From the NCBI GenBank assembly GCA_965235115.1, contig OZ249436.1:33668001-33732000 (forward strand): DNA of 64,000 nucleotides. The letters run 5' to 3'. Shown piece after piece: positions 3,201-57,261 of this stretch (its first letter is position 1; the number at the start of each line of letters is the position of its first letter). A program made the position numbers and the translations under genes. The notes beneath the pieces were generated by a model. It was not told the DNA's origin. It searched no databases and saw only the letters and a list, made by a program, of their open reading frames with translations. The stretch is from Laetmonice hystrix (taxonomy: Eukaryota).

Positions 3201-4974
3201 CTTGACACACTATAAAAGATTAAGTCACTCCAATTGTGCTTGCAGTGCGGTGGAACACTCGCAACAGGATCGCCGCTACAGTGATAGTCGACTGCCATAG
3301 ACGCTCATATATATTTTCCTTTCTTTGTTTTTACATGAGTTCAGAGTATCATACTTGGGCATGCAATTTCAGTATGTCTACAGTACACACCCCTACCTTT
3401 AAAAAAATTAATCCGTCATTTGCTAACCATACAACCCCCAAAAAGAGGATACCTTCCTCTCAACTGAGCAATTTCTAGTTATCACAGGATCTTGCACAAC
3501 GTCCTTAGAACTCATGTCAGTAAAGTACGAAAGCCCAGAAGGCTCATCCGAGATGCGAAATCCGAAATGCGAGATGTGAGATGCGAAATGCGAAATGCGA
3601 AATGCGAAATGCGAGATGTGAGATGCGAAATGCGAAATGCGAAATGCGAAATGCGAAATGCGAAATCCGAAATCCGAAATGCGAGATGTGAAAATCTTAA
3701 AAAACAAAAAAACAAAAAAAAACAAAACAACAACAACAAAAAAACGCTGGCCAATGAGATATAGGCCTATAGAGGTTACCTACTTTTGGTCTCACGGTTC
3801 TTTTTCAACAGAGGTGTCAGTATGAAATGTCAGTTTTTGATTCTTTGGTCCCTTCTTTGTGATGTCAGTAAATGCATATAAAGCGTTCTTAACTGTTTTA
3901 AGGCTACACTGGAAAAATAGATTGGTTAAATTTAACAAATTATGTGCTGTGATTATGGTTCATTCTAATAAGCGTAGGGCTACACCCAACTGTACTGTAC
4001 CCTACCCAAACCATAGAAATCCCATAATTCCCCTTGAATGGCCATGCCGCCTTCTGGGGTAGCTGCAGCAGTAATGGCGGAGAGTAAAGTGAGAGTAGCC
4101 TACAGAAGACCATCCCGTGACCATCGTGTAAGCCTTCCATGTATTTAATCAGGCACAATTATAAAATAACTGAATAAACCCTGGTCAAAGGTAGTTCAGT
4201 TTCTAAACGGTGTCTTCTAGAACACCGTTAGTTGTCGAGTGACGTTTGCCCAGCGATTCTTGCGAAGAGTTCCGTTATCGCAACTTTGCGACCTTCGTTT
4301 TGGTACTAAACTTCTTCTATGGAGCATGAAATCGATATTTTCAGAGAGCAGAGGTGATAGAATGGCTATTCTAACCTTGATTATAATTATTGGACAAATA
4401 TAACGTCTGGTTGATTACGTGCAAGTCGGGTCCGTAGGCTCCGTAAGCCATCTGCGGTGCACCGAGTGACCGGGAACTGATAAAAGCTAGATCGCTCAGG
4501 ATACCCGAAACGGGTTGCTTCACTCTGTGCCGTCAGCGCCAGGTAGCGCGACCTACTTATATGCGGTCCGTTCCGGATCCACTATAGAGGTCGGAAATAT
4601 GCACACCCGATAAACTGGGCCACCGCTCGTCGCCTGCGCTGCGCTGAATTTGACCAAACAAACTGAGAATTTCACCTACTAAGATAACATCCAACAAAAT
4701 ACATTTACGTATCTGTTGAAGTAACCTCTTTTGTGTACTCTCAGCAAGTTTCAGTGCCAAAAGTGGTCTGTAACATGACTTTGAGGCGATGGTGCGCGAT
4801 AGGACCAAGATACAACCCCGGCAGGATAGCAGTCGCTGGTGTAATTTGTACTCGAGTCCGTATGGACGTAAGGACTAGGACTTTGACTTGTTGGAGTAGG
4901 TCAAAGGATGACAGAAGACCGGCTCCGAATGTTTCAGAATCAACTGTAACGAGAGTCCGTTGGGACTTTACATT

Positions 4975-5232
4975 TTGACATTTCGGATTATGGATTTCGG
5001 ATTTCGAATTTCGCATTTCGCATTTCGCATTTCGCATTTCGCATTTCGCATTTCGCATTTCGGATTTCGGATTTCGGATTTCGCATTTCGCATTTCGCAT
5101 TTCGCATTTCGCATTTCGGATTTCGGATTTCGGATTTCGCATTTCGGATTTCGGATTTCGGATCTCGCATTTCGCATTTCGCATTTCGCATTTCGAATTT
5201 CGGATTTCAGATTTCGTATTTCAAATTTCGGA
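4975..5232. repeat. (TTTCGCA/TTTCGGA)n heptamer satellite inside the 3526-5892 element
   Basis: Direct inspection. Confidence 0.95.
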
Positions 5233-5560: not shown

Positions 5561-6562
5561 CAAAAGTTAGCCAAGAAGTGCACTTTGAGTCCCAATGGGG
5601 GGTTCGAACCCCCCGACCCCCCCTCTAGATCCATGCCTGAGTAAGTAAGTAAGTAAGTAAGTAGGGGAGTAGGCCTAAGTAAGTAAGTAAGTAAGTAACC
5701 TCTAACTTATTGGCCAGCGTTTTGTTTTTTGGGGGTTGTTTTGTTTGTTTTTGTTTTTTTTGTTTTTTAAGATTTTCACATCTCGCATTTCGGATTTCGG
5801 ATTTCGGATTTCGTATTTCGCATTTCGCATTTCGCATTTCGCATTTCGCATTTCGCATTTCGCATCTCGCATGAGCCTTCTGGGCTTTCGTAGTAAAGCT
5901 ACTCGGGCGAATGAAGCAATGAGTCAAAAGACCTGAAACATTTGTTTCTTTGTCCCGACTATATTTTGATTTCCAATCTTTTTGGTGGATACACATTACC
6001 TTTTTGCTTTGCCAAGCCTTGGATAGAACCTCTTCCTTGGACAAATAACTCCTCCGCATATTATGCCATCTGTTCGATTTCACACGTCTCAAATAGTTCT
6101 CATTGGGTAGAAATCCATAATTAAACTACATAATATTCTGTTGCTCCAATTTTAAAGAAGTTTGATCTTGAAATGAAACAGGATGGAATGTACAAACATA
6201 AAAACACGGAACGAAAATATTAAGATATTCTACACTTTGTTATTACTTAAGTCAGTCAAGATTGGCGCACGTAATACGAGTCTTTTCCCATCTATGGATT
6301 GGAGTAACCGCTGATGGAAATGTAACAGATACAGAGGGACATGTAATATTTAATGTATAGCTTATTGTTTATCCCTAGTAGACCGGGGGATTTGTGCTCA
6401 AATGGGCCGTAACCCAAAACAAATTGCAATAGTAATAAACCATATACCAAATGAAAGCTCACGAGCTGCTCTATAACATATCCAAAGTCTAAGAAAATCT
6501 AATTAGTGGAAGAACTTTTTCTAGAGGGGGGGGGGGGAATTTGGCCTTACGTATACCCATAT

Positions 6563-7682: not shown

Positions 7683-9480
7683 ATGTGTTGGATATTGGAT
7701 ATAAACGGGATATATTCAAAACAACGTGCTCAAAAGCAAAGGCCTAAGGAGGAGGAATTTATACAAAAGCTGAAAGAACTAGAGGAAAACCTAAGTGAGA
7801 ACAACCTTTTAGAATACCGAGAAATGAAAAAAAAGATTGGAAAAATAGACACAGAAAACGCTAGAGGAATTATTCTGGCAATTATAAAGGCAAAATGGTA
7901 TGAGGGTGGTGAAAGGAACACCAAGTATTTTATGAACTTAGAGAGGAGAAATTCCATCAAGAAACACATTCTAAAATTGAAGTTACACCTGAAAAATATA
8001 TAACAGACCCTAAACCAATTCTATTAGAAGAAGAGTGCTTTTATGAAAACCTTTATAAAGAGAAAATAATACAACTCGATTTGGAAGAAAATCAAATAAG
8101 TTTGTTAACCCTACATCATTACCTAGACTATCACCGAAACAGAAAGAAAGTTGTGAGGGACTAATAACTGAAGATGAGTGTAAGACTGTTTTAAAACCCT
8201 TAAAAACAACAAATCACCAGGGAATGAGGGGCTTACAACGGAATTTTATAAATACTTCTGAAATGACAGTACCCTTACATTACATCAGTATATTAGTATC
8301 TTGTTACAATAAAAGCTATAGCAACCAAATTCTACCCGTATCTCAAAGGAAAGCTGTAATAACCCTAATTGATAAAGGAAAGGATAGGTTATCACTTAAA
8401 AATTGGCGTCCGATTTCACTTCTGAATACAGATTATAAACTCATGACTAAAGTAATAGCATATAGAATGAAAAAGGTATTACCGGATATAATACACCATA
8501 ATGATTGATCAGACGGATTATGTTGAGGGAAGATCTATTGGGGATCGTGTGAGGCAAGTGTTAGACCTTATAGAATATAATGGAAAGTGAGGATATTTCA
8601 GGTTCAATAGTATGCACAGATTTTGAAAATGCTTTCGATTCCTTAAATTGGAAATTCATGATAAAAACAATGGAAACTTTCATTTTGGCCCTAATGTTAT
8701 TTAACGGGTAAAAACCTTTTATAATGATATCTCAGCCTGTAATATTAATAACGGTTACACCTCAGGTTATTTTAAATTAGAAAGGGGAGTAAGCAGGGCC
8801 AGATCCAGGATTTTTTTCAAGGGTTGGGGGATGGGGGGTGGGGGGTGGGGGGTGGGGGGTTGCAGTCATCTAGTCGGCCTATCAATGTATCATTGCCAGT
8901 TATTTGCTGTTGTTCTCTTTTTACTTATATTATTATATTATTATTATTTTATGGGATATTGGTTAATTACCACTTTAGATTTCAGATTCATACCGTGGTT
9001 CTTTCGGGAAAAAATTCGACAACTTTTTGTTTTCTTATATGGGGGATTCTAAGGGAGGTTGCACCCCTCTTAGTTAAAATGGGTGTCGGATCAATGCAAA
9101 TTTTGTAACGCCGATAAAGAAACACTATGTCCACTTACTCTATAGGTGCGTAAAGGTCCAAATATTTTGGAGACAAGTTGAAATATGGTTTAATACAATT
9201 GTTAGTACATGGCAATGTTAAATTTATCAGAAGTGTGTGTTTTGTTTGGAGACCTCTCAGAAGCTCAATCATAATATGGAACAGTGTTGTACTTTTAGGA
9301 AAGTATTATATTTATGGATGTAAAGTTCAGGAAAAAAATTACAGAACAAACGGGTTTCAAAAGCAGGTTAAACGAAGAATTAATGGTAGAAAATAAAGTA
9401 GCAAAGAATACAAACAAAGAGGAAGGTTTCTTAGAAAATGGGAGGTATTTTTGAATGCGTCACATAACTAAGCTTCTGTA
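7683..9480 (+). mobile_element. Degenerate L1/Tx1-clade LINE ORF2 (RT) fragment, frameshifted, internally deleted and interrupted near 8793
   Basis: Motifs across frames: KAKWYEGGERNTKYF, KSPG.EGL..EFY, ITLIDKGKDRLSLKNWRPISLLNTDYKLMTKVIA.RMK.VLP.II, DFENAFDSLNWKF, NNGYTSGYFKLERGV, and C-terminal VLLGKYYIY. Confidence 0.9.
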
Positions 9481-28383: not shown

Positions 28384-29168
28384 TACGAAACCTTATTTGC
28401 CGTGTGATTTGCCATAATAGAGGATCTGGTTCTTAAAAATACCTAGGCAATGGGGGGATGTGTCCACGAACAGGATGCGGCGTCCGCGAATGGGTCAGGA
28501 AGGTTTTAGTTCCCCAGGTTGGCAACAATTATTTAGCAGGTTCTTCCACAAAGCGACTGTCAGAATGTTGCTGTGATCAGACTGACCTCTCTCCTCTGTC
28601 TCTGTTCCTTCAGCGTTTGAAAATCCAGAATTATGCTGTCGGTTAGACTTGCACGGGAGAATTGTGAATCACGCATGTGAGACTTAAAAAGCAATCTTGG
28701 AATCCGTTTCCTTTTATGCACGTGTCGGCATGAAAGGAAACCATATCATAAAGTTGCACCAAAGTAGAACTAAAAAGCAAAATAGTGAATAGGTTATTGA
28801 AGAAACTTCAAATCCTAGTTCAATCTCTATTCAGAAGTATCACGGAATGCCTCGACAATTTGCATAGTCTTTCTGACTTAAATGTCAAAACGTCTTCTAT
28901 CAAGAGGGTCCAGTCATGCTAACCTAATAGAAACGTTTTCATTGAAAACCTAAATTGGCGTGGTCTATGCCTTCCCATTTTATTAAAATATAATATTATC
29001 ATAGTTATTATATTTTGATTACGGAGGTATTAAACTGGTTTGCTAACGGGTAGAAATAGTGGAGGTGGTATAACAATTGAAAGAACTAAACTTTTTAATC
29101 CAAGGGCATTAGCTATTTAAAATATGAATAATGAAAACGAGAGAAACATATAAATTTGTACCACTTAC

Positions 29169-29870
29169 CTGGCTTCTTAAGGCTGCTTCATTGTCATAAA
29201 CTATGGTTTGAGGCGCAACGTTCCTGCCTGCATTGCTGTATATGACCTTCACGATGATGCAACTATAACCGGAAGTACAGCCTTTGCCACAGGAACATTT
29301 CTTTTCCTCAATGGACCGTTCTATGGCGATCGGCAAACAGGTGGTGTCTTTAAACCGTTGGGCTTTCCTGTACGGGTCGACGACCAGAACCCCAACAACG
29401 ATGAGCGCAATGAAGCAAGCCATGACAAAGATGCCGATCCAGAGATAGAGTGTCATGGAACACAGCCGCGAGTTCCGGCACCTCCTGCAGCAACCGCGAC
29501 ACCACAACGGCACCTCTTCCTCATCGATGTCGCTGAGGTCGTCTTCCGACTCGGACCCCTTGTCGGCAAGTTCCACCTGCATGGCGATCGTGACCAGTTC
29601 CTCTGGAGGCTCACTCTCCTCCTCCCCGAGCCGTGTGAAGCCCGCCGTGCTCCGGCCTCCTCCAACTCCCCCTCCTCCTGCTCCCCTGGAGCCGCCCCCG
29701 GTGGCCGTACCCCCCTCCTGGCGGCGATAGCCCGACCCACCGTCCAGGTAAGCCAGCCCGCCGTGGTCCGGGTCATGAGTCAAACGGTCAGAGGCGCGTG
29801 GCTCGTAGTCGAAGTCGTCTATGTCCTCGCGGCCTTCGACCATGATGACCGGGTGGGGTAGCGCTGCCAT
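29169..29870 (-). CDS. First coding exon of a calcium-activated K+ (BK) channel beta-subunit-like protein (CaKB/KCNMB/TipE-related); partial gene
   Basis: Acidic/Gly-rich N-terminus, a Cys cluster, TM1 (LYLWIGIFVMACFIALIVVGVLVV), then DPY...F..TTC, CSCGKGCTSGYSCIIVKVIY and VYDNE, resembling the KCNMB extracellular loop. Start context GGCATGG, acceptor TTTCCGGTTGCAG at 29957, donor CAG|GTAAGT at 29168. Confidence 0.75.
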
Positions 29871-31307
29871 GCCAACCGGCGGCCAACACGTGCCGCTACT
29901 CCTCCTCACAGAACGAGCTCAGATTAATACAGATTTGTAGGAGAATACATCATGATCTGCAACCGGAAATGAAAAAAAATAGGGAATCCAGCTCCACAAA
30001 TCCTGCTTGCTATTTCAGCAGTCAAAAGAAGGCTGGAAGTAATCTATAAGGCAATGTACACTTTGGGCTGGGGTATTTTGCACCAGCCTGTTCTAATAAC
30101 GTTCCTTGTAAGGTTCGGTGATGAACTCACTATCCAACGATAGGTATTTTATCAGAATAAAATGAGAAGAGCCCTTTTAGACCAGATAAAACTAAATCAA
30201 TTAACGAAAATAATTAAATCTCATGAATCTTGAATGCGGCCTACAGACAGTGATCCCTGTAAATCCGTCAATCCTTCGGGATAACCCGTTGGCTTGGCCC
30301 CGTTAAATCCGTACTAATGACTTCCAGTCATTACGCCCGGACCAGTTTGTCTCGCGGCCAAGTTGATCTAAGAGGTACCGCATGAGGACATCTGCTGTCC
30401 GGGGCTGTCTCGGCGGACCTCAGGGATCCTCCCAGCTCAGCGCCGAATCTACATTAATCCTACTCCAGCACTATCTATCGGCAGACTCCAGATGGTATGG
30501 CTTTCCTCTCGCTCCACACCCAAGCTCCCCCAGCGGAGTCGTTGTCTTTCTTCTCCCCACGAAGACAAACGACCATTCCACGGAGTTTTCCAGTTGCACG
30601 TCTCCCAATGCGTGAGAGCCGTTGCCCGCAGGGTATTGCGTTTCTTATTGCGGTCCAAGTCCGGAATCCCTGAAAGCAGAACCTGGAGGCGCTGTGAGGG
30701 ATATTGGCTTACTGCTGGCCACGTTGCGTACGATGAAAGTCCTCCACGTGCTCTGATCAGCTCCAGGGAGAGTAGAGAGTGACCGAGCCCGTGCGACTCC
30801 GGGCCCCAAGTTACGGCAGGGTGGGTGGGGACTGGGGAGGGGGGACGTGAAGGGGTGACATCCACACTGTTTTATCTTGAGATGAGATAGTGCTGCCGCG
30901 GTCCGGTGCTGCAATATGGGTAATCGTCGCTTACTATCAGTTAATTATCGTCACACGCCTCTCAGATTAAGGCCAGCATCAGCGATGGGTAGAAACATGT
31001 CCGTGAGGGGTAATCATATGTTGCTGCACTATTCATGAAACAACATTTATATCAATCGGGTAGTTGCCGTTCAATCGTCCAGTTATTGCAAACTTCATCT
31101 TCTAATAGGTTTCCATGACCTGTCGCCATAGTTCGATTTTTAGAACAGGCACGAAGGTCTCATCGCGGGTATAGTCGGTGGTTATTGATCTTCTATCCTT
31201 GGATATGTATTGATATGTGTGCTGCTCTCCAATGTCTGGGGATTGAAGCAAAGGCTGTATAAATCAAGAGGGCGCTTTTGTGTGTTTTCTTTCCTAATTT
31301 CGAGGTT

Positions 31308-37064: not shown

Positions 37065-38596
37065 TACGGTGGCCCAGAAGTACAAAATCGTCTACTCGTC
37101 GACCAGATTCCTCCACTCGTCGGCCTCATTCCTCTACTCGTCGACCAGATTCCTCCACTCGTCGGCCTCAATCCTCTACTCGTCGACCACTCAATCCTCT
37201 ACTCGTCGACCAGATTACTTCACTCGTCGGCCTCATTCCTTGACTCGTCGACCGGATTCCTCGACTCGACGGTCGCACATTCCTTCACTCGTCGGTCAGA
37301 TTCCTCGACTCGACGGTCGCACATTCCTCGACTCGACGGTCGCAAATTCCTTGACTCCACGGCCAGATTCTTCCACTCCACTCATCTATGGGAAGTAGCT
37401 GCTGACATCTGACGGTCATTCTTGTAGTATATGACAAACTACAGGTGGCGCTGCGATCGGGAGTGGAACTCTCTTGTGTGGAGATACTAAATAGACGGAA
37501 GTTAGAGTATTTCTGATTGTATGCAAGCGCTGGAAAGTTTTTGCCGAATTAAGATTCCCACTGCTCTTCAAATTTCTGCTAAAGAAGTACAACTTATAAT
37601 GAGCAGGTCTTACCACATAAATGCCTTTCAAATGCTATTTTGAAAAAGAAAATGGAGTAGCCAATAGGTATATTAACATTTTGAAAATGTCAACTCGGAG
37701 CCCGGGCGGCCCCGCAAGCATGGGGCGAGCCCGGCGGTATATGTTGGCGGCTCTCGGTCGCTGCTACTGCCGTGTAACGTCCACCTGCCAAGGTGGGTCA
37801 CCCGCGGCCGGCCGTGGTCGTGGGCCGGGCACCGTGACATCAGCAGGACTGGCCGCACGGGTGCCTGACGGTGGAGGCAGTAAGGGGGCCCGGGGGCCTG
37901 GGGTGAAAACGGCCAACCGTGTCTCCCCACGTAGGCTGAACTTATCCTACAGTAGGCCTACTCTGTTTTACAGGTCTATTTTATATAGTGAGGAGAAGAC
38001 TTGGCTACGAGATGTGAAGGTCTGAGACTGCATGCCTCTGACCGCCGGGGATGTGACGGCCTGACCGCCGGGGATGTGACGGTCTGACTGTCAGTGCCAT
38101 TGGGAGTGTGGCTGTGCCGTCACGCGGGCGTTTTGACTTTAGCCGTGTGACGGCAATTCATTAGGATAGTGTGTACTTCAGTGCTACGTTTATTTTCGTT
38201 ATTTAGGGCCTACAGTTCAAAATCAATATGCTGTGGTAGGTGATCGGATGAAAAAATTCCTTTGTGGCTTCTTTCGCTACTTCCGGTCTATGCAAGCGCC
38301 CTCTGGTGAGAGCCACTGCAGCAGCGAGTTCAGTTTTACCACAATATCTGAGGACTGAATCGACGAACCGAGGAATATGTGGGGCCGTCGAGTGAAGGAA
38401 TATGTGACCGTCGAGTGAAGGAATGAGGCCGACGAGTGAAGGAATGTGCGACCGTCGAGTCGAGGAATCTGGCCGACGAGTGAAGGAATGAGGCTGACGA
38501 GTGAAGGAATGTGCGACCGTCGAGTCGAGGAATCTGGCCGACGAGTGAAGGAATGAGGCCGACGAGTAGACGATTTTGTACTTCTGGGCCACCGTA
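37065..38596. mobile_element. TACGG..CCGTA inverted-repeat element with ~21-bp minisatellite arms and a GC-rich core
   Basis: TACGGTGGCCCAGAAGTACAAAATCGTCTACTCGTCG at the left end and its exact reverse complement at the right end. Flanks differ (GCGTAC vs GTAAAC). Confidence 0.75.
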
Positions 38597-44542: not shown

Positions 44543-45067
<525 letters not shown>

Positions 45068-48369: not shown

Positions 48370-51300
48370 TTACAGTAAATCCTCTTGATTTTCTTTACCG
48401 GTTATGTAAAACGTCGTATGTTTACTTGATCGTTTGCCTGTGCGAACATTATCGTTTCTCCGAGACTGGCCTTCCTGTCGGGGTTCGCCCCTTGTGGCAG
48501 CACTCTCCGAGGCACTGTTGGACTTTCCTTTGCGGATAATGGGAACCGTTGAACTTTGATGGCTTTGCTGAGCTCCCCTGTTAACGGGAGCGGAATGGTA
48601 ACGCTCCGGTTCGACGATTTGGTCTGGGTGGAGGGCAAACTGGACCCGAGGCTGTGGACGGTCATGAGCCACCTGGCGGTCACCAGCGGCCGTCCGTCTG
48701 CCGTCCGTCCCGTGACCTCTGACGTCAAGGTCACGAGAACACTGGCCGGACTCTGGCCGGACTCTGTGGTCTCCTCGGTGATCCGTCCTTTTGCGCTGGT
48801 CGTGAACGTAAGGAGTGATGTAAGCATGTGGCTTCGACCTGTCACTTCCTGAAAGAGACCTTGGGCTATCGGCACGATATTCCTGGCCCAGACGTTCCTG
48901 GTGTTGCATTGTCACGGTTGTAGGCAGACCCGAGTCAATATCAGTCTCGATGTAGTGGCCCCTCTCATACTTTTGGTACATTTCACCTTCAGGTATGGAG
49001 TCAATATACTGCTGAACGATTTCTTTTCGAACTGCATCCATGTTACTTTCTTTAGATTTCACTCCACTTCCCGATACATCAGCTGGCTCAATATTGTATG
49101 AGTCTTCCAGGCGTCCTTTCGGGTGCTTTTGTCTTTTCTGTTTGGGCATTTTGTCGCTATTGACGTGGACTTTGGTGGCCTTGCCATCTGAGCTTCCTAC
49201 TGTTGCTCCTACATACGGGAGAAGATTTCGACTTTGCGATTCACCACTTGTGCGTTTCTTGCGTCGTTTTTCTTTGGTTTTGGTTGTCTTGTCTTTGGTT
49301 GCATCCTTTGGTATGTCTTTTTGCTGCGCAGATACAGCAGGAATAGATTCAGGTTTGACGCCCTCTGTCGAAAATCCTATATTGTAGACTTTAGACAAAG
49401 GAATCGTTTTTGCTTCCTTTGAGCGGATCTCATGGGCGGTGACCATACCAGTCTGGTCCGGTTCTTGAATGGGGCGCGAATAATTCTGGTTTGCTGCATG
49501 AGAGCTTGAGACGTTATATCCTGCAGAACCGAAATTTGATCCTTTCAAATGCTTTTCTTTTCCTACCATCATATTCATTTCACTCCTGTATACCTTAGTA
49601 GGGTCATGGACAGCCGACGCTAGTGTCACTTGTTTGTTGGGCGTGTCATTGGCCAGGAATGGATGTTCGTCGTCTTTGTCCGAGAATGCACCACTCCGGG
49701 CTGTGTTGAAGGAATCCGTTGTAAAATTGCTGATTTCAGAAACCAGCGTCAAATCGGCACTTGTATCGGACGTTTTATCTTTGCTCTGGCCGCCAGTTTC
49801 AGGGATACTATGGAAAGAGCCTGTAAGATCGCTGATATCGGATGTTATGGTCACGTCATCTGGAATTTCTGAGAGCGCCTCACTCCGCCCGGTGTGATAG
49901 GAAGCCGTTGTGACCTCACTCCTGATAGTTCGGACACTCGGAACCTGACTTCGACCGGTATGGAATGATTCCAGCGTAAGTTCACTAACCTCTGATGTTA
50001 TTGTGGCATCGTCGCTGTCAGATCCGGTGTGGCTACGCCCTGTACGAAACGACTCGGCATAATCACTGATGTCAGACGCAAGGGCTATTGACCCGCGACC
50101 GCTGCTCGCCATGCTTGGTGGACGCTGGGGGAAAAGTTGCTGTCCTGATACATGTCCGGCCTGTTGCATGCCTCCCTGTCCGTGTTGGAAGTGAGGTTGC
50201 TGTCCCGTGCTCCTACGTTGTGAAACAGACCTGACGTATCCACTCGGCTCATTGTACGATGAGCTATGGCTCACCGTGCCCACAGTTGGATGGCGATAGT
50301 TAGGACCTGGGTACGTGTTGGTTCGAGAAGACTGATCGGGTGGCGGGATCTTGTTAGCCGCCCCTCGGGTTGGAACGCGGGCGTTTTGCTGAGCAGCGTA
50401 TCTTGCCACCTCTGCCGCATTCAATGGAGGTTTTGAATTGGCGTCCCATGGACCTTTTCCACTGTGCTCACTGTTACGATTCGGTTGTGGGTTAAATGAC
50501 GCCTGGCTAGAAAGCTGAGAATCGCGACTTTGCGAGGATCTTATTACCGGCTGGGACATATACCTCATCATACCATTTTGGGGCATATCCGTCTTACTCA
50601 GGTCCGTTTCTGATGCTCTGGTTGGAATCCTACCAGTTTGAGATACTGATTGGTGTGGCCACGTGCCACTGGACGCCACGGAGTCCCAGTTGTACGGTGA
50701 CGCCCATGTGACACATTCCTCTTTTCTCTTTGGTTTGGGGCTCTTGCTCTTTGACCTTTTGAAATTAAGACTTAAGCTTCGGCTTCTCGGTCGACTCCGA
50801 GATGGTAGTTCAAATGGTGGACAATCAGTCATAACATGTTTGGGGCCAAGATCAGCACAACCAACAAGATCGACCACACTTGCTGACCTCGGTTTTCGTA
50901 GTAAGGATTGCTGACCCGCACCTGCCGAACTGGCAGGAAACCCACGATTCATGTCGTTTGGCCTTGGCTCTTCTGAATGCCCCTCTTGTCTCGGTATATC
51001 ACCTGTGGACATGACGCGTTTGTCACGCGTACGTGACGGGTGAGATCCCCCAGTCTCAGAAGATGGTAGCTTGAGGAACGATTCACCGTTTTCTACAATT
51101 TGCGGGGATTGTTTTTGGTCCTTTCTGATGATGGGCATTGCTCCAGTTTGGGCTAAAGTGATGTCTGAAGACATATCTGTCTTTGCTTTTCGTTCTGTCT
51201 CCCTGGGAGCACTAACCGTTACTGTATCAAAAAGGTTGTTAATAAATTGGCGTGGTTCATCATTAGTTGATGCTGGCGCATCAACATCCCTCACATACCG

Positions 51301-53306
51301 TATGCCTGGATACATCTCTGAATTGTACTTCTTCAATATGTCATCATTTTGCTGTGAGATCCGATCCTTGGCGTCGGATGTGTGCCAGGATAATTGGGTT
51401 GGATCATTAGCTGGAGCATTGTTGGCTGGCTCTGCAGACACAAAATCGGCTCTCTCCTGTACAATGGTTTCATTCTGGAGTTGGCCTTCCTCTACAGGTT
51501 GTGTTTTAACCTCGGTACTGGACTTTGCTGGCATCTCTACATGACCATGAATTGCTTCTTTAGAAGGAACCTGGTGATTCGGCGTTGGCTGCGATTGTCC
51601 GCTGTGGATTGGAACCTCCTGCATTTCAATGGGATGAACTGGTGTTTGGCCTGTTTCCCGGTAATGGATTGATTCCTGGTGTGATTCCCTGGGAGGGGCC
51701 GGTACTTGTGGAGGCTGTCTGGGAGGGATTTGAACCTGGTGTGTCTCTCGGGGAGGGATTGGTATTTGAGGGGGCTCTCCGGGAGAGATTGGTATCTGAT
51801 GGGTCTCTCTGGGAGGGATTGGTACTTCAGGGGTCTGTCTGGGAGGGATTGGTGCTTGAGGGGTCTCTCTGGGAGGGATTCGTACTTGAGGGGTCTCTCT
51901 GGGAGGGGTTGGTACCTGATGGGACTTTCTTGGAGGGATCGCAGGACCTTGCACCTGATGAGTATCTATGGGAGAGATTGGAACCTGGTGGATCTCTCTG
52001 GGAGGGATTGGTACCTGATGGGTCTCTATGGGAGGGATTGGTACCTGATGTGTCTCTCTTGGGGGGATTGGTACCTGAGGGGTCTCTCTGGGAGGGATTG
52101 GTACCTGATGGGACGCTCTCGGAGGGATCGCAGGACCTTGCACCTGATGAGTATCTCTGGGAGGGATTGGTTCGCGATGTTGTTCTCGGGGAGGGATTGA
52201 AGAGATGAGTACTTGATGGATCTCTTTTGAAGGGACTGGTACTTGTGATTCTCTGGGAGGGACTGGAGGGACTGGCACCTGATGAGTCTCTCTAGGGGGG
52301 ATTGGGGGGACTGGTAGCTGATAGGTCTCTCTAGGGGGGATTGGGGGGACTGGTAGCTGATGGGTCGCTCTAGGAGGGATTGGTACTTGTGGGATCTCCC
52401 TAGGAGGGGTTGGTTCTTGTTGTGATTGCCTAGGAAGGATTGGTTCTGGGTGTGATTGTCTCGGAGGGATTACTACTTTATGGGTTTCTCTTGGAGGAAT
52501 TGGTCCTCGATGTGATTGTCCGGTTGGGACTGTTTCTTGATGTGATCTTCCGAGAGGGACTCTTTCTTGATGTGATCCTCTTGGAGGGACCGGTTCTTGA
52601 CGGGTATCTTTGGAACGGTCTCTTGCTTGATGTACGTCATTTTGTGCGGTCTCCACGGGGTAAATCTTTTCTTTGTCATCAGGCTTTGGCTGTGTTTGTA
52701 TATGTGAAGTGTTCTCTACTGATTGGGCTAGCCTACTGGAAGGCGTTGGAGCCCGATACCACTGACGTGGTTCACGAAAACTCTCTATTCTCTCGGATGC
52801 AGTCATATATTTAGCTCCGGTACCAGAGCTGTATGGTCGTCTGGTCAATGACCCACCTGACGATCGATCAGACACATACGAGTACTTAGAGACAGAGGAA
52901 GTAAAGCTCCCACTTCCAAGACTCCCTCGGAAATTTCCACTTTGAAGCGAGGACCCGCCTATGCTCCCTACATCATCGTTGTACCCTTTTGGCATTTTAC
53001 CCGATGCTCTTGCTTGGAGTTCTTCAGCTATCCACACTGTGTCGGCATCTTCTTTCAGTACGTCACACAACACAGCGAATGCTTTCTGATCGCAAAGTGG
53101 CAGGTAACTAAGGAGCTGTTGTGATCTTTCCTCGTGATTCGATTTCGATCCTATTGCCTCGGCCTGGTGAATGTCAAGCAGCTGTTTACGTAGAAGGGCA
53201 TTCATCACTTCACGGTAGTTCATGTATTTCATCAGTGAAGCCGCACTTTTTGATAGTGCCCGACAACAGGGTTCTGACATCAACCGCTTCAGAGGCTGCT
53301 TCGAGG
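48370..53306 (-). CDS. Coding exon 2 of the same gene: CARD-like death-fold domain followed by a ~1,500-aa disordered Pro/Ser/Gln-rich tail
   Basis: 4.9-kb uninterrupted ORF. The acceptor TGTTGTCATTTCAG (AG at 53308-53307) is phase-compatible with the exon-1 donor, giving ...PTEN-A-SKQPLKRLMSEP.... The first ~90 aa show a CARD six-helix pattern. The 3' end may instead splice at G|GTAAAG near 48398. Confidence 0.8.
51690..52600 (-). repeat. Coding minisatellite, ~30-bp unit encoding (V/I)PIPPRETHQ-type repeats
   Basis: Recurrent plus-strand unit gggagggattggtacctgatgggtctctct; more than 20 xPPR-containing units in the translation. Confidence 0.9.
53010..53283 (-). other. CARD-like (death-fold) domain
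   Basis: MSEPCCRALSKSAASLMKYMNYREVMNALLRKQLLDIHQAEAIGSKSNHEERSQQLLSYLPLCDQKAFAVLCDVLKEDADTVWIAEEL matches by eye the CARD pattern (L..L...l.....l..L....vl......e.I......r...LLd.Lp..g..AF..F...L.......la..L). Confidence 0.75.
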
Positions 53307-53703
53307 CTGAAATGACAACAGGTTTTATTATGTAAACAAAGGAGTAGATAGCAATGGAAATGTGCCGTTTAAAATTATCTTAGACCAAAACGAAATAAGT
53401 TAATTACCTAAAATTTAATTGGAAATTGAGACGTCTCATTTTAGATACCAAGTTCTGAACAAATGTAACGCAAAATAATCTGACAAGACTACGTTTTTAT
53501 CCTTCACAAATAAGTCCAATATTTGATCTTAAAAATTATATTATTTTGAATCCAGGAAATTCGTGAAAACGGTTAATGGCTTCGTTAATAAAACTAGATG
53601 CCTCACGACACTGTTTAATACAGAGAAAATCGGTCGGGATATCTTGAATGTCAAAACACTAAATGAAGTCAAACACAAAGCATTAGCTTCAGCTGACATT
53701 TAC

Positions 53704-55807
53704 CATTTTCGGTTGGGAACACATCTTCCAAGGACAAGAATTGCCCTGGGAGACAGTTGCGACACTGGAAATCTCTGGCTTCTGCTGGGGACGTGTAGAT
53801 GATGTTGTCAGCAGGGAATGTGTCCACAACCGTCTCTGTGTCTTTCTCTGCTAACATTTTGTTGAGGCAGTGAGCACACTGACAGTACCAGTAGGCAACC
53901 ACCCCAGGGTAGTGGTGCAGCAACACCCTGTTCGTAACGGCAACAAGCAGAAGAATTATGTGACGAGCCATTGACTTTCGGTCGATCCGTACCCTTGCAG
54001 AAAGCGTGAGGACTGCAAGGTTTTCACCGTCTTCTTTTGCCTCAATGCGTATCAAATCTTGTCCTTCATCACAAAAGGCAACCATGCCTTCCTTCCACGA
54101 AAGACAGTGGTCGACGTATGTGTGTGCTCGTATGAGCACCTTTTCTAAGAAGCCGAAGGGAAGACCTTTTGAAGTGAAGCATAACTCCACGCCACACTGC
54201 ATGAAGTTGTCAAGAATGTCATCTGACCACAGGAAGGCAATCTCGGGTGGTTTTGACTTATTCAGAAGATACGGGAAGAGAAAATGACGGCCATCTGTTA
54301 GTCCATCCCCAGCCTTGACGCGAATTTCATAACAAAGATCAAACTTCTCCAGCAGGGGTAATATGGCACGGTACACATCATCCGTCAATCCCATCGCGTC
54401 CCAAAAGCAGCGTAAGAGCTTCTCGCCAATAACACCTCTCTCCCGAAGGTTCTTCCGTAGACTTACAAAGTCGGGATGCGGAAGCCTAAGGATCGCCTTG
54501 TGCTTCCAAACAAACCGGGTTTCGTCCATGAAGTAGTTATGATTGAAAACCAATCCGAAAATGGCCAGAAGAAGATTTGGGTTCACAAACACATACTTGC
54601 TAAGTTCACTGTTCTTGCGGTAGTCTTCGTAATGAAGCACAAGACCGATTGACTGAAGATAACCCAACGCCTTCCCGACGTCTTCAAGTCCGACATCCAG
54701 CTCTTCTGCCATTGTAACAAACTCTGACATGGTAACGAATGGAACGTCCTCTTTTTTAGTAATTATAATATCCGATAACGACAACCATGGCTTCGGGACA
54801 TCATTCTGAGGAAAAAGCGATGCATTGTCTAATACAATGCTGACAAGGTTTTCACGAAACTGGTTGATCCCTTCGTATGTTTTTGAACTTAGACAGCACA
54901 CACTTCGAAAAATCCTGGGCCTATTTTTCATCAGGAGGGCCAGTCTTTGCATGGGTTGACGAAGTGTCTTTGGTTGGAATTTATGAACATCAGAGACTGA
55001 GTCACACTTTATTTCCTCCTTGAGTGACTGCATTTCTTTCTGTAATTTGAGCCGGTTTATATTCTCCATCTGAATAATCTTGGAATACATGTCTTCGCAA
55101 TGTCTGGCCATTAGTTCCTTATCCGGACATTCATCAATATGTGTAGCGAGGACACAAATCACAGGAGCCACAAGCCGAGCAGTGAGGATGTTGTACCAGT
55201 GACACAGGGTGCCCTCGAAGCGCAGAGGGTCATAGTTTGATATGTCCACGGTTAACAGGTAAATGGCACGTTGCGACAGGAACAACTGTTGGCTAAAATG
55301 ATAAGTGTTGTGCCCTCCAAAGTCATAAAACCAGAGGGTCACATCCTGCCGAAGGGAGACTGAGTGGACCTCAATGCCGATCGTTCTACCATCTGGACCT
55401 TGCGGTGCAAGGCGAGGTTCTCCATACCGAAGGGCGTTCAACAGGCTCGTCTTCCCTGCAGCAACTGATCCCAGTAATACAACCTTGGCTTGGGCTAGTC
55501 GCACGGCTGATCCATGGGATTCGATCTCAGCCTGGTCTGAACCCCATTCCTCTGAATCCCATCGCGCCCTCGGGTCAGGAAGTGGATCAGTCTGTGAAGT
55601 CTCATGGAAACCTCTGTTAGACAATGCTGAATCTTGGAGGTGTGTAGGGCCACCAAATGTGTGCGCAGGGGAATCTGGAAGGCTGACACGATCGCCAAAG
55701 GAGTGGAAGGGCCCTGTGAAGTCTGGTAAACTGATCTCGTCGGCGTCTGGGAGCGGCTCAAGGGGACCCGACCACATGGTGCCTGCTGCAGTACTTCTAC
55801 CCTCCAT
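53704..55807 (-). CDS. Coding exon 1 of a ROCO protein: ~105-aa low-complexity N-terminus, Roc GTPase, COR and a C-terminal CxxC..CxxC segment (MFHAS1/MASL1-like, no LRRs)
   Basis: GTPase motifs: P-loop KVVLLGSVAAGKTSL, switch I RTIGIEV, G3 YDFGG, G4 ATHID, G5 LSSKT. A helical insert between G4 and G5 resembles MFHAS1. COR motifs: VPKPW, LGYLQSIGLVLHY, VFVNP, LLEKFDLCY, FLFPYLL, LPFGFLEK, WKEG. The ATG lies in GCCATGG with an in-frame TGA three codons upstream. Acceptor TTTTCATATTCCAG at 55826; donor G|GTAAAT at 53703. Confidence 0.9.
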
Positions 55808-57261
55808 GGCACAGCATCAATATGTCTGGAATATGAAAAAAAATCATTTCAGACGTTTGAGAGTCTTGTTACGTCTTATCCCTAGTTGCCAGTTATAATG
55901 ACGTCTCTAAGGGTGACACGTGTAAAGAATTTCAGATGAAGATATTAGGGATGAATGCACACTAGTATGAAATAAAAAGTTTCTGTTAAGGTTAAAAATC
56001 ATACTTTTTTTTTTTAATTCACAAAGAGTACAAGGAGTCCAATACTTTTCAAAAGGGCTGTAACATCTCGATACGGTTGGAATGTCTTACGACCAGAGAT
56101 GGTGGTAGTTGGATGTCAAGATCTCTGTAACGATCTATAGTCATGTCCTGTTTTTTATATCGTCATCCGAAATGATTATGAGGACTTGACTTTAAAGATT
56201 TCAGTTGATCTGGGCTGCAATCTTCTAGACCCAATGTCAGTCCTCGACGGGTGGCCGACTCATATACGCCGGATGTTCAACAACCTATTTTCTATCCATG
56301 CTACTATGAGATAATACAATGACTACTCATCATTGTCCCATACTGAGAGGGTAAATAACGATATCCCTCTTACAGGTGGAACAACAGCATTACAAAGAAG
56401 AAAACACACACACACCCCTCCACTTAAAACAGGTTATAGGCCTAGCCTTATACAATTAGTTTAATTCGCAAAAAAGTAAAAAAGTTTTACAAAATGTCCT
56501 TTCAGTTTTAATGAATATTCACTTGGTATAGACAGTTTGGCGACATCGGTGATGGGGATATCAATATGATCGATTTAGTTTCAAATGACATATTACTATG
56601 TCTGCTGTCCTGTTATGACAGGCTGGAGGCCAGCTGCCACATGTATTACATGTATATGAAAAGTGCAATCATTCTATTGCCTCTATACCGTAGACCCAGT
56701 TGGTATGTAGGCCTCTGTAGAAGAAAAACGCCGCCAGTTCATGCCCACGGATAGCGACAGTTGGTATTGGCGGCAGACCAGTTATTATTCTCAAGGACAG
56801 ACTTTGACCTTTAATGTTTGAACAAAGATTACCAGGGGGATGTCGACATCAGAGATAGCGGTCGATGAATCTCCAAACACAGCCCATTGTTTGCAAGGTT
56901 CACGCTGATGTTTATCATAACAAGGTGCTAGTGTTGTTAACATTATCGATTTGGCTATCATCCGTAACCTCACCAACAAGGTGTCATGGCAATGGTGATA
57001 CAGCACTTATTTTGACGAGGGCGATGAAAATAACTCCGCTCAAAATTAGGCACCAAAGGCTAAATTAATAAACCACGTGTCCATACGCCCACGGCCTTTT
57101 ATTACGAGTACAGTGTTCCTTTTTTAAAGTCGCTCAGTGGCATTATTCGCTTGAATTTTTCCACTTTGTACATCTGCTTGTTGACGTAACCATCCAATGT
57201 ATTTTTGAAATGTCATGGCTCGCGCCGTCGTGTTGGTCTTCTGTGGACGGACATAGCCCAC

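Follow-up and report, generated by a model that had tools for sequence, protein, structure and literature searches.

A gene on the minus strand of Laetmonice hystrix contig OZ249436.1 (assembly GCA_965235115.1) was found to encode a Roco protein without leucine-rich repeats (LRRs), in which a Roc-COR GTPase unit is followed by a CARD and a very long tail predicted to be disordered. The gene occupies positions 48370-55807 of the 64,000-nucleotide stretch analysed (hereafter the window, to which coordinates refer unless stated otherwise). It was confirmed as a real two-exon gene by comparison with its orthologues, and purifying conservation of Roc-COR, the CARD and a few tail islands was shown from their sequences. 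By sequence the gene is a distinct lineage, single-copy and with its own LRR-less clade outside MFHAS1 proper. The protein is read here, with about even confidence and partly by analogy, as a conserved single-copy cytoplasmic Roco signalling scaffold in which nucleotide state would govern CARD presentation and the tail would replace the LRRs.

The two longest frames of the window, both on the minus strand (53669-55816, 715 amino acids (aa), and 48370-53379, 1,669 aa), had been proposed in a preliminary description to join in frame over a 397-bp GT-AG intron into a product of about 2,346 aa. Coordinates and frame were as claimed: exons 55807-53704 and 53306-48370, when joined, gave an open frame of 2,346 aa, the only stop being at its end. 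The elements of the gene model were as follows (ORF, open reading frame).

53704-55807, minus strand: coding exon 1 (aa 1-701; 2,104 nt), with a variable N-terminus of about 100 aa, Roc, COR and the CxxC module; orthologous single ORFs P0006-P0010 and P0178
53307-53703, minus strand: phase-1 GT-AG intron of 397 nt, starting GTAAAT and ending TTTCAG, phase 1 on both sides
48370-53306, minus strand: coding exon 2 (aa 702-2346 and stop), with the CARD and disordered tail; orthologous ORFs P0171, P0172 and P0173
55817-55845, minus strand: splice-acceptor-like site seen in the sequence, with poly-T, AG at 55827-55826 and an in-frame TGA at 55819-55817, 12 nt before the ATG

Open frames of 701 and 1,645 codons would arise by chance with probabilities of about 1e-15 and 1e-35, respectively. 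Exon 1 ends (ATG/GTAAAT) and exon 2 starts (TTTCAG/CCT) in phase 1, but this phase was common to four of eight nearby GT and two of six nearby AG dinucleotides; the in-frame join is therefore weak evidence by itself, and the splice join rests on the orthologues. One of them, P0179 (2,284 aa), is uninterrupted and is joined at the same site and with the same spacing as the window gene, and Pfam identified it as Roc-COR-CARD without LRR. Its sequence agrees with that of the genomic ORF P0178 at 700 of 701 aa and, from residue 10 on, with that of P0177 save for three substitutions. Both forms occurred in one cluster: P0176/P0178 (701 aa) and P0173/P0177 (1,593 aa) come from Logan contigs of 8,807 bases, and the contig of P0179 has 7,893 bases and probably represents the spliced transcript. 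Similarity among the exon-1 orthologues P0006, P0007, P0008, P0009 and P0010 (84, 74, 48, 42 and 51% identity, respectively) stopped just past the same VFP motif, P0006 begins at the same Met as the window gene, and L010, the only orthologue locus with DNA, has a GTAAGT donor at the position of the window intron donor. The exon-2 orthologues P0171, P0172 and P0175 lie on contigs equal in size (617,704, 569,900 and 3,956,143) to those of the exon-1 orthologues P0006, P0007 and P0015, and may be the same contigs. A candidate second exon on L010, 1,059 nt past the donor, held 31 residues resembling the first CARD helix; it was absent from the reported CARD-profile matches of 40 frames and was not counted as evidence.

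It is very improbable that this model is wrong, be it that the exons belong to different genes or that further exons upstream make this a common LRR-Roc-COR gene with LRRs. In favour of such an error, a search listed no RNA run for the species, and three read runs behaved as DNA of one sample, with even cover over the intron, no joint at it and no spliced read; a Met of exon 2 stands where the CARD begins; and the start of the P0008 ORF resembles acceptor read-through, so that an upstream coding exon may exist there. These points are countered by P0179, with the same junction and no LRR, by the three pairs of equal-sized contigs, and by the in-frame TGA past the upstream acceptor-like site, owing to which any exon spliced there would be 5' untranslated region only. 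Moreover, an LRR profile (114 LRR units) run over all six frames of the window and a further 60 kb upstream (124 kb; 4,908 frames) gave no match, the positive control, an LRR-Roc-COR gene on C11 of the same genome, scoring E 4e-18; Pfam scans of P0001 and P0179 likewise returned no LRR. The gene was thus rightly described as LRR-less.

Domain composition, tail and conservation

The features of the protein, all on the minus strand, were the following.

54803-55507, minus strand: Roc GTPase domain (aa ~101-335; Pfam Roc E 3e-11), with G1 GSVAAGKT (55471-55448), G2 Thr, G3 DFGG, G4 THID and G5 SSKT
53903-54802, minus strand: COR-A and COR-B (aa ~336-635; Pfam COR-A E 1e-13; full-length fold match over 550-620 columns)
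53753-53878, minus strand: putative zinc module CxxC-35-CxxC (C644, C647, C682, C685), from sequence; the model is of low confidence here
53008-53280, minus strand: CARD of six helices (aa 711-801; Pfam 25.9 bits; model with predicted local distance difference test (pLDDT) 85.5, from 5 sequences)
52756-53001, minus strand: Gly/Ser/Tyr-rich linker (aa 804-885), moderately conserved (30-43% identity)
51676-52600, minus strand: Pro-rich 30-bp tandem repeats (IPPRETHQVP-like), species-specific (TRF arrays 51689-52600; 8-26% identity to orthologues)
50683-51018, minus strand: conserved tail island (aa 1465-1576) with RVxSTGDI, SVVDLxGxADLGPxHV, an Arg/Ser/Lys-rich run and TWAxPY (43-67% identity over aa 1501-1600)
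49681-50073, minus strand: conserved acidic Ser/Thr ladder (S/T-x-x-S/T runs, DDxTITSxxSxL units; aa ~1780-1910; 41-66% identity)
48808-49029, minus strand: short conserved C-terminal motifs RKEIVQxYIDSI, ETDID and KPHAYxxPY (aa 2128-2201), from the alignment of orthologues

The Roc and COR assignments of the preliminary description were upheld by Pfam matches above cut-off to Roc (aa 108-225; 43.9 bits, cut-off 27) and, directly behind it, to COR-A (aa 338-515; 51.4 bits, cut-off 35.3), and by a model of exon 1 (pLDDT 66, 12 sequences) that matched the folds of LRRK1, LRRK2 and CtRoco over the whole of Roc-COR (E 1e-17). COR-B was weak in P0179 (19.3 bits, below the cut-off of 27). Model helices form a long two-helix insertion between G4 and G5, and the G1-G5 motifs were intact in all seven clade members checked. 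Both CxxC pairs were present in six of the seven, P0030 having the first pair only; the module matched no Pfam family and may bind metal. Pfam gave no match to kinase or ankyrin repeats in P0001, P0002 or P0179, and no stretch of the protein was transmembrane-like, the best 19-aa hydropathy value (1.64) lying inside Roc.

A death-fold domain expected near 53283-53010 was recovered there as a CARD, by a Pfam score above cut-off (25.9 bits, cut-off 23.9; orthologues 31.2, 36.6 and 32.8 bits) and by the fold of the model. The best structural match was the CARD of Apaf-1 (template modelling score 0.86, Z 14.4, root-mean-square deviation 1.8 over 93 residues) at 15% identity, other CARDs giving Z values of 10-13. 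Foldseek E-values were about 0.02 only, with nearly all of the rows listed being CARDs, and a sequence search of the PDB with the CARD returned unrelated weak matches only.

About 1,540 aa of tail were predicted to be disordered, all ten blocks from aa ~900 onwards having a negative FoldIndex-type score. The tail had been described as Pro-rich repeats followed by Ser/Thr repeats, and this held in part. The Ser/Thr ladder is conserved and enriched in all four tails, each having 17-21 four-step ladders where 300 shuffles gave 1.2-2.8, whereas the Pro repeats are not conserved: PPR occurs 22 times in the window tail and 1, 2 and 3 times in three orthologues, and P0171 has an unrelated repeat at their position. 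The island at aa 1465-1576 matched no Pfam family and had no paralogue in the genome. An ET(D/N)(I/L)D motif was found in three of four tails, and three times in P0030. RHIM and pLxIS motifs were counted at zero in the tails examined; RVxF, PxxPxR, 14-3-3, TRAF2/3, TRAF6 and beta-TrCP motifs occurred at chance level relative to shuffles and were discarded as evidence.

The gene is single-copy in the 627-Mb genome, the next Roco being 25% identical; a genome search gave one strong match (the gene itself) and three distant LRR-bearing Rocos, and a search with the tail matched only itself. Identity to three orthologues was 86/74/67% for Roc, 87/77/77% for COR, 76/64/52% for the Cys module and 82/72/66% for the CARD, and 26/8/15% for the Pro repeats, 67/43/46% for the island (aa 1501-1600) and 66/48/41% for the Ser/Thr ladder. 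Among the 40 listed of 83 differences in the DNA runs, 27 were in coding sequence: all four in COR were synonymous, the single one in the N-terminus changed a residue, and in the tail 9 were synonymous and 12 changing, 10 of these in repeats, where contigs may be misplaced. None of the nine listed indels fell in coding sequence.

Relatives and comparison with known systems

The homologue search produced 3,647 matches at E 0.001 among 1.84 billion representatives, of which the best 150 were listed; named records among the homologues came from Lingula, Branchiostoma and Owenia. Pfam scans of 36 top homologues (E 1e-6) found a CARD in 4 and a death domain in 7, others carrying caspase, OTU, GT4, FIIND or protease domains, and such domains occupy the same slot behind COR in the relatives; P0040, for example, is an LRR-Roc-COR-caspase protein. 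Home-made profiles run on 162 proteins gave 21 CARD and 21 death-domain carriers, counts that include training members and a few weak N-terminal matches. Lingula and Branchiostoma records were among the carriers, in agreement with the earlier statement that invertebrate Roco-death-fold fusions exist. Searches of a cluster atlas returned Roc-COR and CARD clusters only, and a metagenome scan with 33 candidate stretches yielded a single one, the contig of P0010.

The proposal that the architecture is new did not survive, both on these counts and since a published account of Trichoplax adhaerens (Civiero et al. 2014; PMC4104024, repeated in PMC11378527) already describes Roc-COR joined to CARD or death domains. 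As Roc-COR with CARD is already catalogued, the architecture alone adds little; it is the conserved, single-copy, LRR-less version that seems to be undescribed. No description of this conserved LRR-less clade, or of a Roco with a CARD and a giant disordered tail, was found in the accessible literature, and subscription papers (including the Marin 2008 survey) and supplements may hold one.

Roc-COR trees were built from 127 rows with 430-720 aligned residues and from 40 chosen rows, sets that included no DAPK1, no identifiable placozoan and no vertebrate MFHAS1 by name. The window gene fell in a clade of 7 rows in the former (support 96*) and 9 rows in the latter (95*), the methods being fast and the starred supports generous. 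No row of the clade shows an LRR, although seven of the nine are partial genomic ORFs and only P0179 and P0030 are full-length. Approximately unbiased (AU) tests, with groups named after seeing the tree, rejected joining the clade to the Lingula CARD clade (p-AU 1e-4) and to the clade of P0005 (p-AU 0.002); the MFHAS1 label in the test stands for this one amphioxus record, named MFHAS1 by NCBI. The term 'MFHAS1-type' in the preliminary description thus fits the domain style (a Cys module, a (V/Y)FP end behind COR and no kinase) and not the orthology.

P0030 is a distant LRR-less Roc-COR-CARD protein whose CARD scored 22.4 bits, below the Pfam cut-off. It also has a hydrophobic N-terminal stretch, an acidic disordered region of 940 aa and three ET(D/N)ID motifs shared with the window tail. 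A neighbouring group (P0011, P0020-P0023, P0026 and P0027) consists of genomic Roc-COR ORFs without LRR, some in many copies (clusters of 5-13), which stop a few residues past FP in G-K/G-E, as if a phase-1 intron came next; this pattern may reflect a shared exon cassette for swaps of the C-terminal effector. In P0024 and P0025, which are LRR-Roc-COR relatives, the last 25 residues resemble what we take to be a RHIM (VQVG, IQTG, Asn/Ile context).

Among known systems, the Trichoplax ROCOs share the kinase-less Roc-COR flanked by CARD and death domains, but have expanded to 17 genes, whose further domains include TPR, LRR and AAA, with no giant conserved tail described in the accessible part of PMC4104024. 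The 'MFHAS1 homolog' records of Lingula anatina (XP_013379138.1, XP_023933337.1 and XP_013401509.1) have Roc-COR, the Cys module and a C-terminal CARD; however, they carry LRRs (a 728-aa record starts inside Roc), end at the CARD, belong to a paralogue expansion and fall in another clade. MFHAS1/MASL1 is similar in its kinase-less Roc-COR, helical insertion and C-terminal Cys module (25-30% identity to such proteins), whereas the window gene lacks LRRs and adds the CARD and tail, the genome having a separate LRR-Roc-COR gene on C11. DAPK1 likewise has an LRR-less Roc-COR followed by a death-fold domain (PMC6337361), but the window gene has neither kinase nor ankyrin repeats, and a CARD in place of the death domain. 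The AP-GTPase (Roc)-COR counter-invader proteins (Kaur et al. 2021; PMC8195603) resemble it in the slot directly behind COR, which there holds exchangeable effectors; they have fast-evolving LRRs and many paralogues, whereas the window gene has no sensor and one conserved copy. APAF-1, CED-4 and NLRs also couple an NTPase switch to a CARD of the same fold, although the window protein has a small-GTPase-type Roc instead of a STAND ATPase, places its CARD behind the NTPase and lacks a WD40 or LRR sensor.

Possible roles of the protein

With one copy, and with Roc-COR and CARD 66-87% identical in four species, the gene looks more like a conserved CARD scaffold switched by GTP than like an immune receptor under diversification; the lone conserved copy suggests that the partner is endogenous and fixed, and speaks against recognition of pathogens. 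In such a scaffold, binding of GTP or GDP by Roc would change the conformation or the monomer-dimer state of Roc-COR, by which the CARD, nine residues behind the CxxC module, would be exposed, masked or paired and could then bind a CARD protein, be it a second copy of the same protein, a CRADD-like adaptor or a caspase with a CARD. The tail would serve as the input and targeting part in place of the LRRs, with phosphorylation and docking at the Ser/Thr ladder and the RxxS/basic island, and with the Pro repeats acting as a spacer of variable length. By analogy with CtRoco, LRRK2 and MASL1, the more likely arrangement would be a restrained GTP state and a GDP-bound or empty dimer that pairs CARDs, and the output would most likely be a constitutive developmental or homeostatic CARD pathway. 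Human MASL1 binds GTP and shifts its complex state with the nucleotide, and loss of GTP binding raises its toxicity (PMC3995007); the Roco cycle proposed in PMC6337361 runs between a GTP-bound monomer and a GDP-bound dimer. As regards the nucleotide-controlled Roc-COR dimerisation put forward earlier, the nucleotide site is intact, but the dimerisation step is borrowed from other Rocos, in which GTP tends to accompany the monomer (same source). A two-copy complex prediction with residues 335-800 of P0179 (COR-Cys-CARD), run without alignment and without folded controls, scored 0.00 and speaks neither for nor against pairing.

Several observations weigh against the scaffold reading. CARDs serve also in non-death scaffolds. 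The CARD makes up 4% and the tail 66% of the protein, so that the tail may define its role. In P0030, the other long member of the clade, the disordered part is N-terminal and the Ser/Thr ladder is lacking, and with this layout and its sub-cut-off CARD the tail model covers only four close species. In addition, the single listed difference in the CARD changes a residue (A752V).

The protein could instead be a structural or cell-type-specific scaffold (cytoskeleton, junction, cilium or germ cell) that acts through its tail, with Roc-COR providing switchable self-association, the CARD serving self-assembly only, and no link to death or immunity. This is possible, at roughly one chance in four in our estimate, given that two thirds of the protein are predicted to be disordered, that the tail holds short conserved islands and a phospho-ladder, that the gene is single-copy and that Dictyostelium Rocos act on the cytoskeleton (PMC4104024). 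However, Pfam scans found no cytoskeletal or junction domain, the CARD is conserved as strongly as the GTPase, and the same slot in relatives is filled with death and conflict effectors.

The preliminary description suggested GTPase-controlled clustering of CARDs, analogous to an NLR or apoptosome. Spelled out, the protein would sense danger, oligomerise and start a CARD filament or activate a CARD caspase, possibly as a stand-in for APAF-1. Such clustering is conceivable, but we consider the analogue unlikely. The nearest folds are the CARDs of Apaf-1 and CED-4, P0040 couples LRR-Roc-COR to a caspase, and PMC11463336 reports both a failure to find APAF-1 in molluscs, annelids and a brachiopod (Lingula) and a caspase with a ROC pro-domain in Owenia. 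On the other hand, the protein has no sensor repeats, the gene shows neither expansion nor fast divergence and is strongly conserved, RHIM, pLxIS and TRAF motifs are absent or at chance level, and the Apaf-1 match, at 15% identity, stands beside Z values of 10-13 for other CARDs. Roc-COR is known for monomer-dimer cycles and not for rings (PMC6337361), and the genome has 8 NB-ARC-like matches of its own, one of them beside a CARD (on C19).

A more specific form of this idea is doubtful still: in lophotrochozoan lineages that lost APAF-1, the protein might be a GTP-switched, phosphorylation-gated platform for CARD caspases, engaged directly or via CRADD, that is, an apoptosome substitute with the disordered tail replacing the sensor. 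It derives from the reported absence of APAF-1 and the Owenia ROC-prodomain caspase. Quite improbable, in turn, is a role as an inhibitor or decoy under nucleotide control, by which CARD caspases or adaptors would be sequestered; the protein has no catalytic effector besides the GTPase, and the CARD-only inhibitors ICEBERG and ARC were among the fold matches, but fold similarity is general to CARDs, and 2,300 aa with conserved tail islands exceed the needs of a decoy.

The gene is of interest in two respects. A Roco without LRR and kinase isolates the effect of Roc-COR alone on a fused output domain, which is an open question for LRRK2-family switches, and exon 1 plus the CARD (800 aa) would make a compact test protein. 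It is also a candidate CARD partner for animals that reportedly lost APAF-1 (PMC11463336), which leaves their platform for caspase activation unclear.

Neighbouring loci and other genome observations

An intronless ubiquitin-conjugating enzyme gene (44546-45067, minus strand; UBE2D/UBC4-like, Pfam UQ_con 181.7 bits), which may be a retrogene, lies 3.3 kb downstream on the same strand. Upstream of the gene, on the other strand, a 533-aa frame with a weak NXPE4_C match (L041:249-1847, plus strand) lies at a distance of 8.4 kb from the ATG; a C2H2 zinc-finger frame of 660 aa (L043:3127-5106, plus strand) is a further upstream neighbour on that strand. About 300 bases upstream of the ATG, an element of ~35 bases (~56092-56127) with a read depth ~10x that of its surroundings and many loose ends represents a short interspersed repeat.

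Elsewhere in the window, an exon at 29112-29918 (minus strand) encodes an acidic N-terminus, a Cys-rich stretch and a transmembrane-like segment, with a weak, below-cut-off match to CaKB (BK channel beta subunit; 22.2 bits), and a fragment at 8059-8505 (plus strand) with a weak reverse-transcriptase match lies in an AT-rich stretch. Two related 21/44/65-base arrays in opposite orientation lie about 1 kb apart (37094-37378 and 38377-38567), and 7-base arrays occur on opposite strands at 3549-3693, 4979-5230 and 5774-5872; their arrangement suggests fold-back-type elements. In the rest of the genome (G000), the Hox cluster includes Lox2/Lox4-like genes and a gene with the KLTGP peptide, a signature of lophotrochozoans; the phylum markers erythrocruorin linker, molluscan haemocyanin and haemerythrin had no match, a result that carries no weight. 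The genome match lists contained no identifiable CARD-caspase gene, and no caspase match near any listed CARD match. C19:10143924-10145118 holds a CARD directly followed by an NB-ARC-like frame of 881 aa, with a second CARD 7 kb on, and is a CARD-STAND (NLR-like) locus, and tandem arrays of ~14 and ~11 near-identical homeobox copies were located at C4:18.75-18.82 Mb and C4:22.89-22.93 Mb, respectively.

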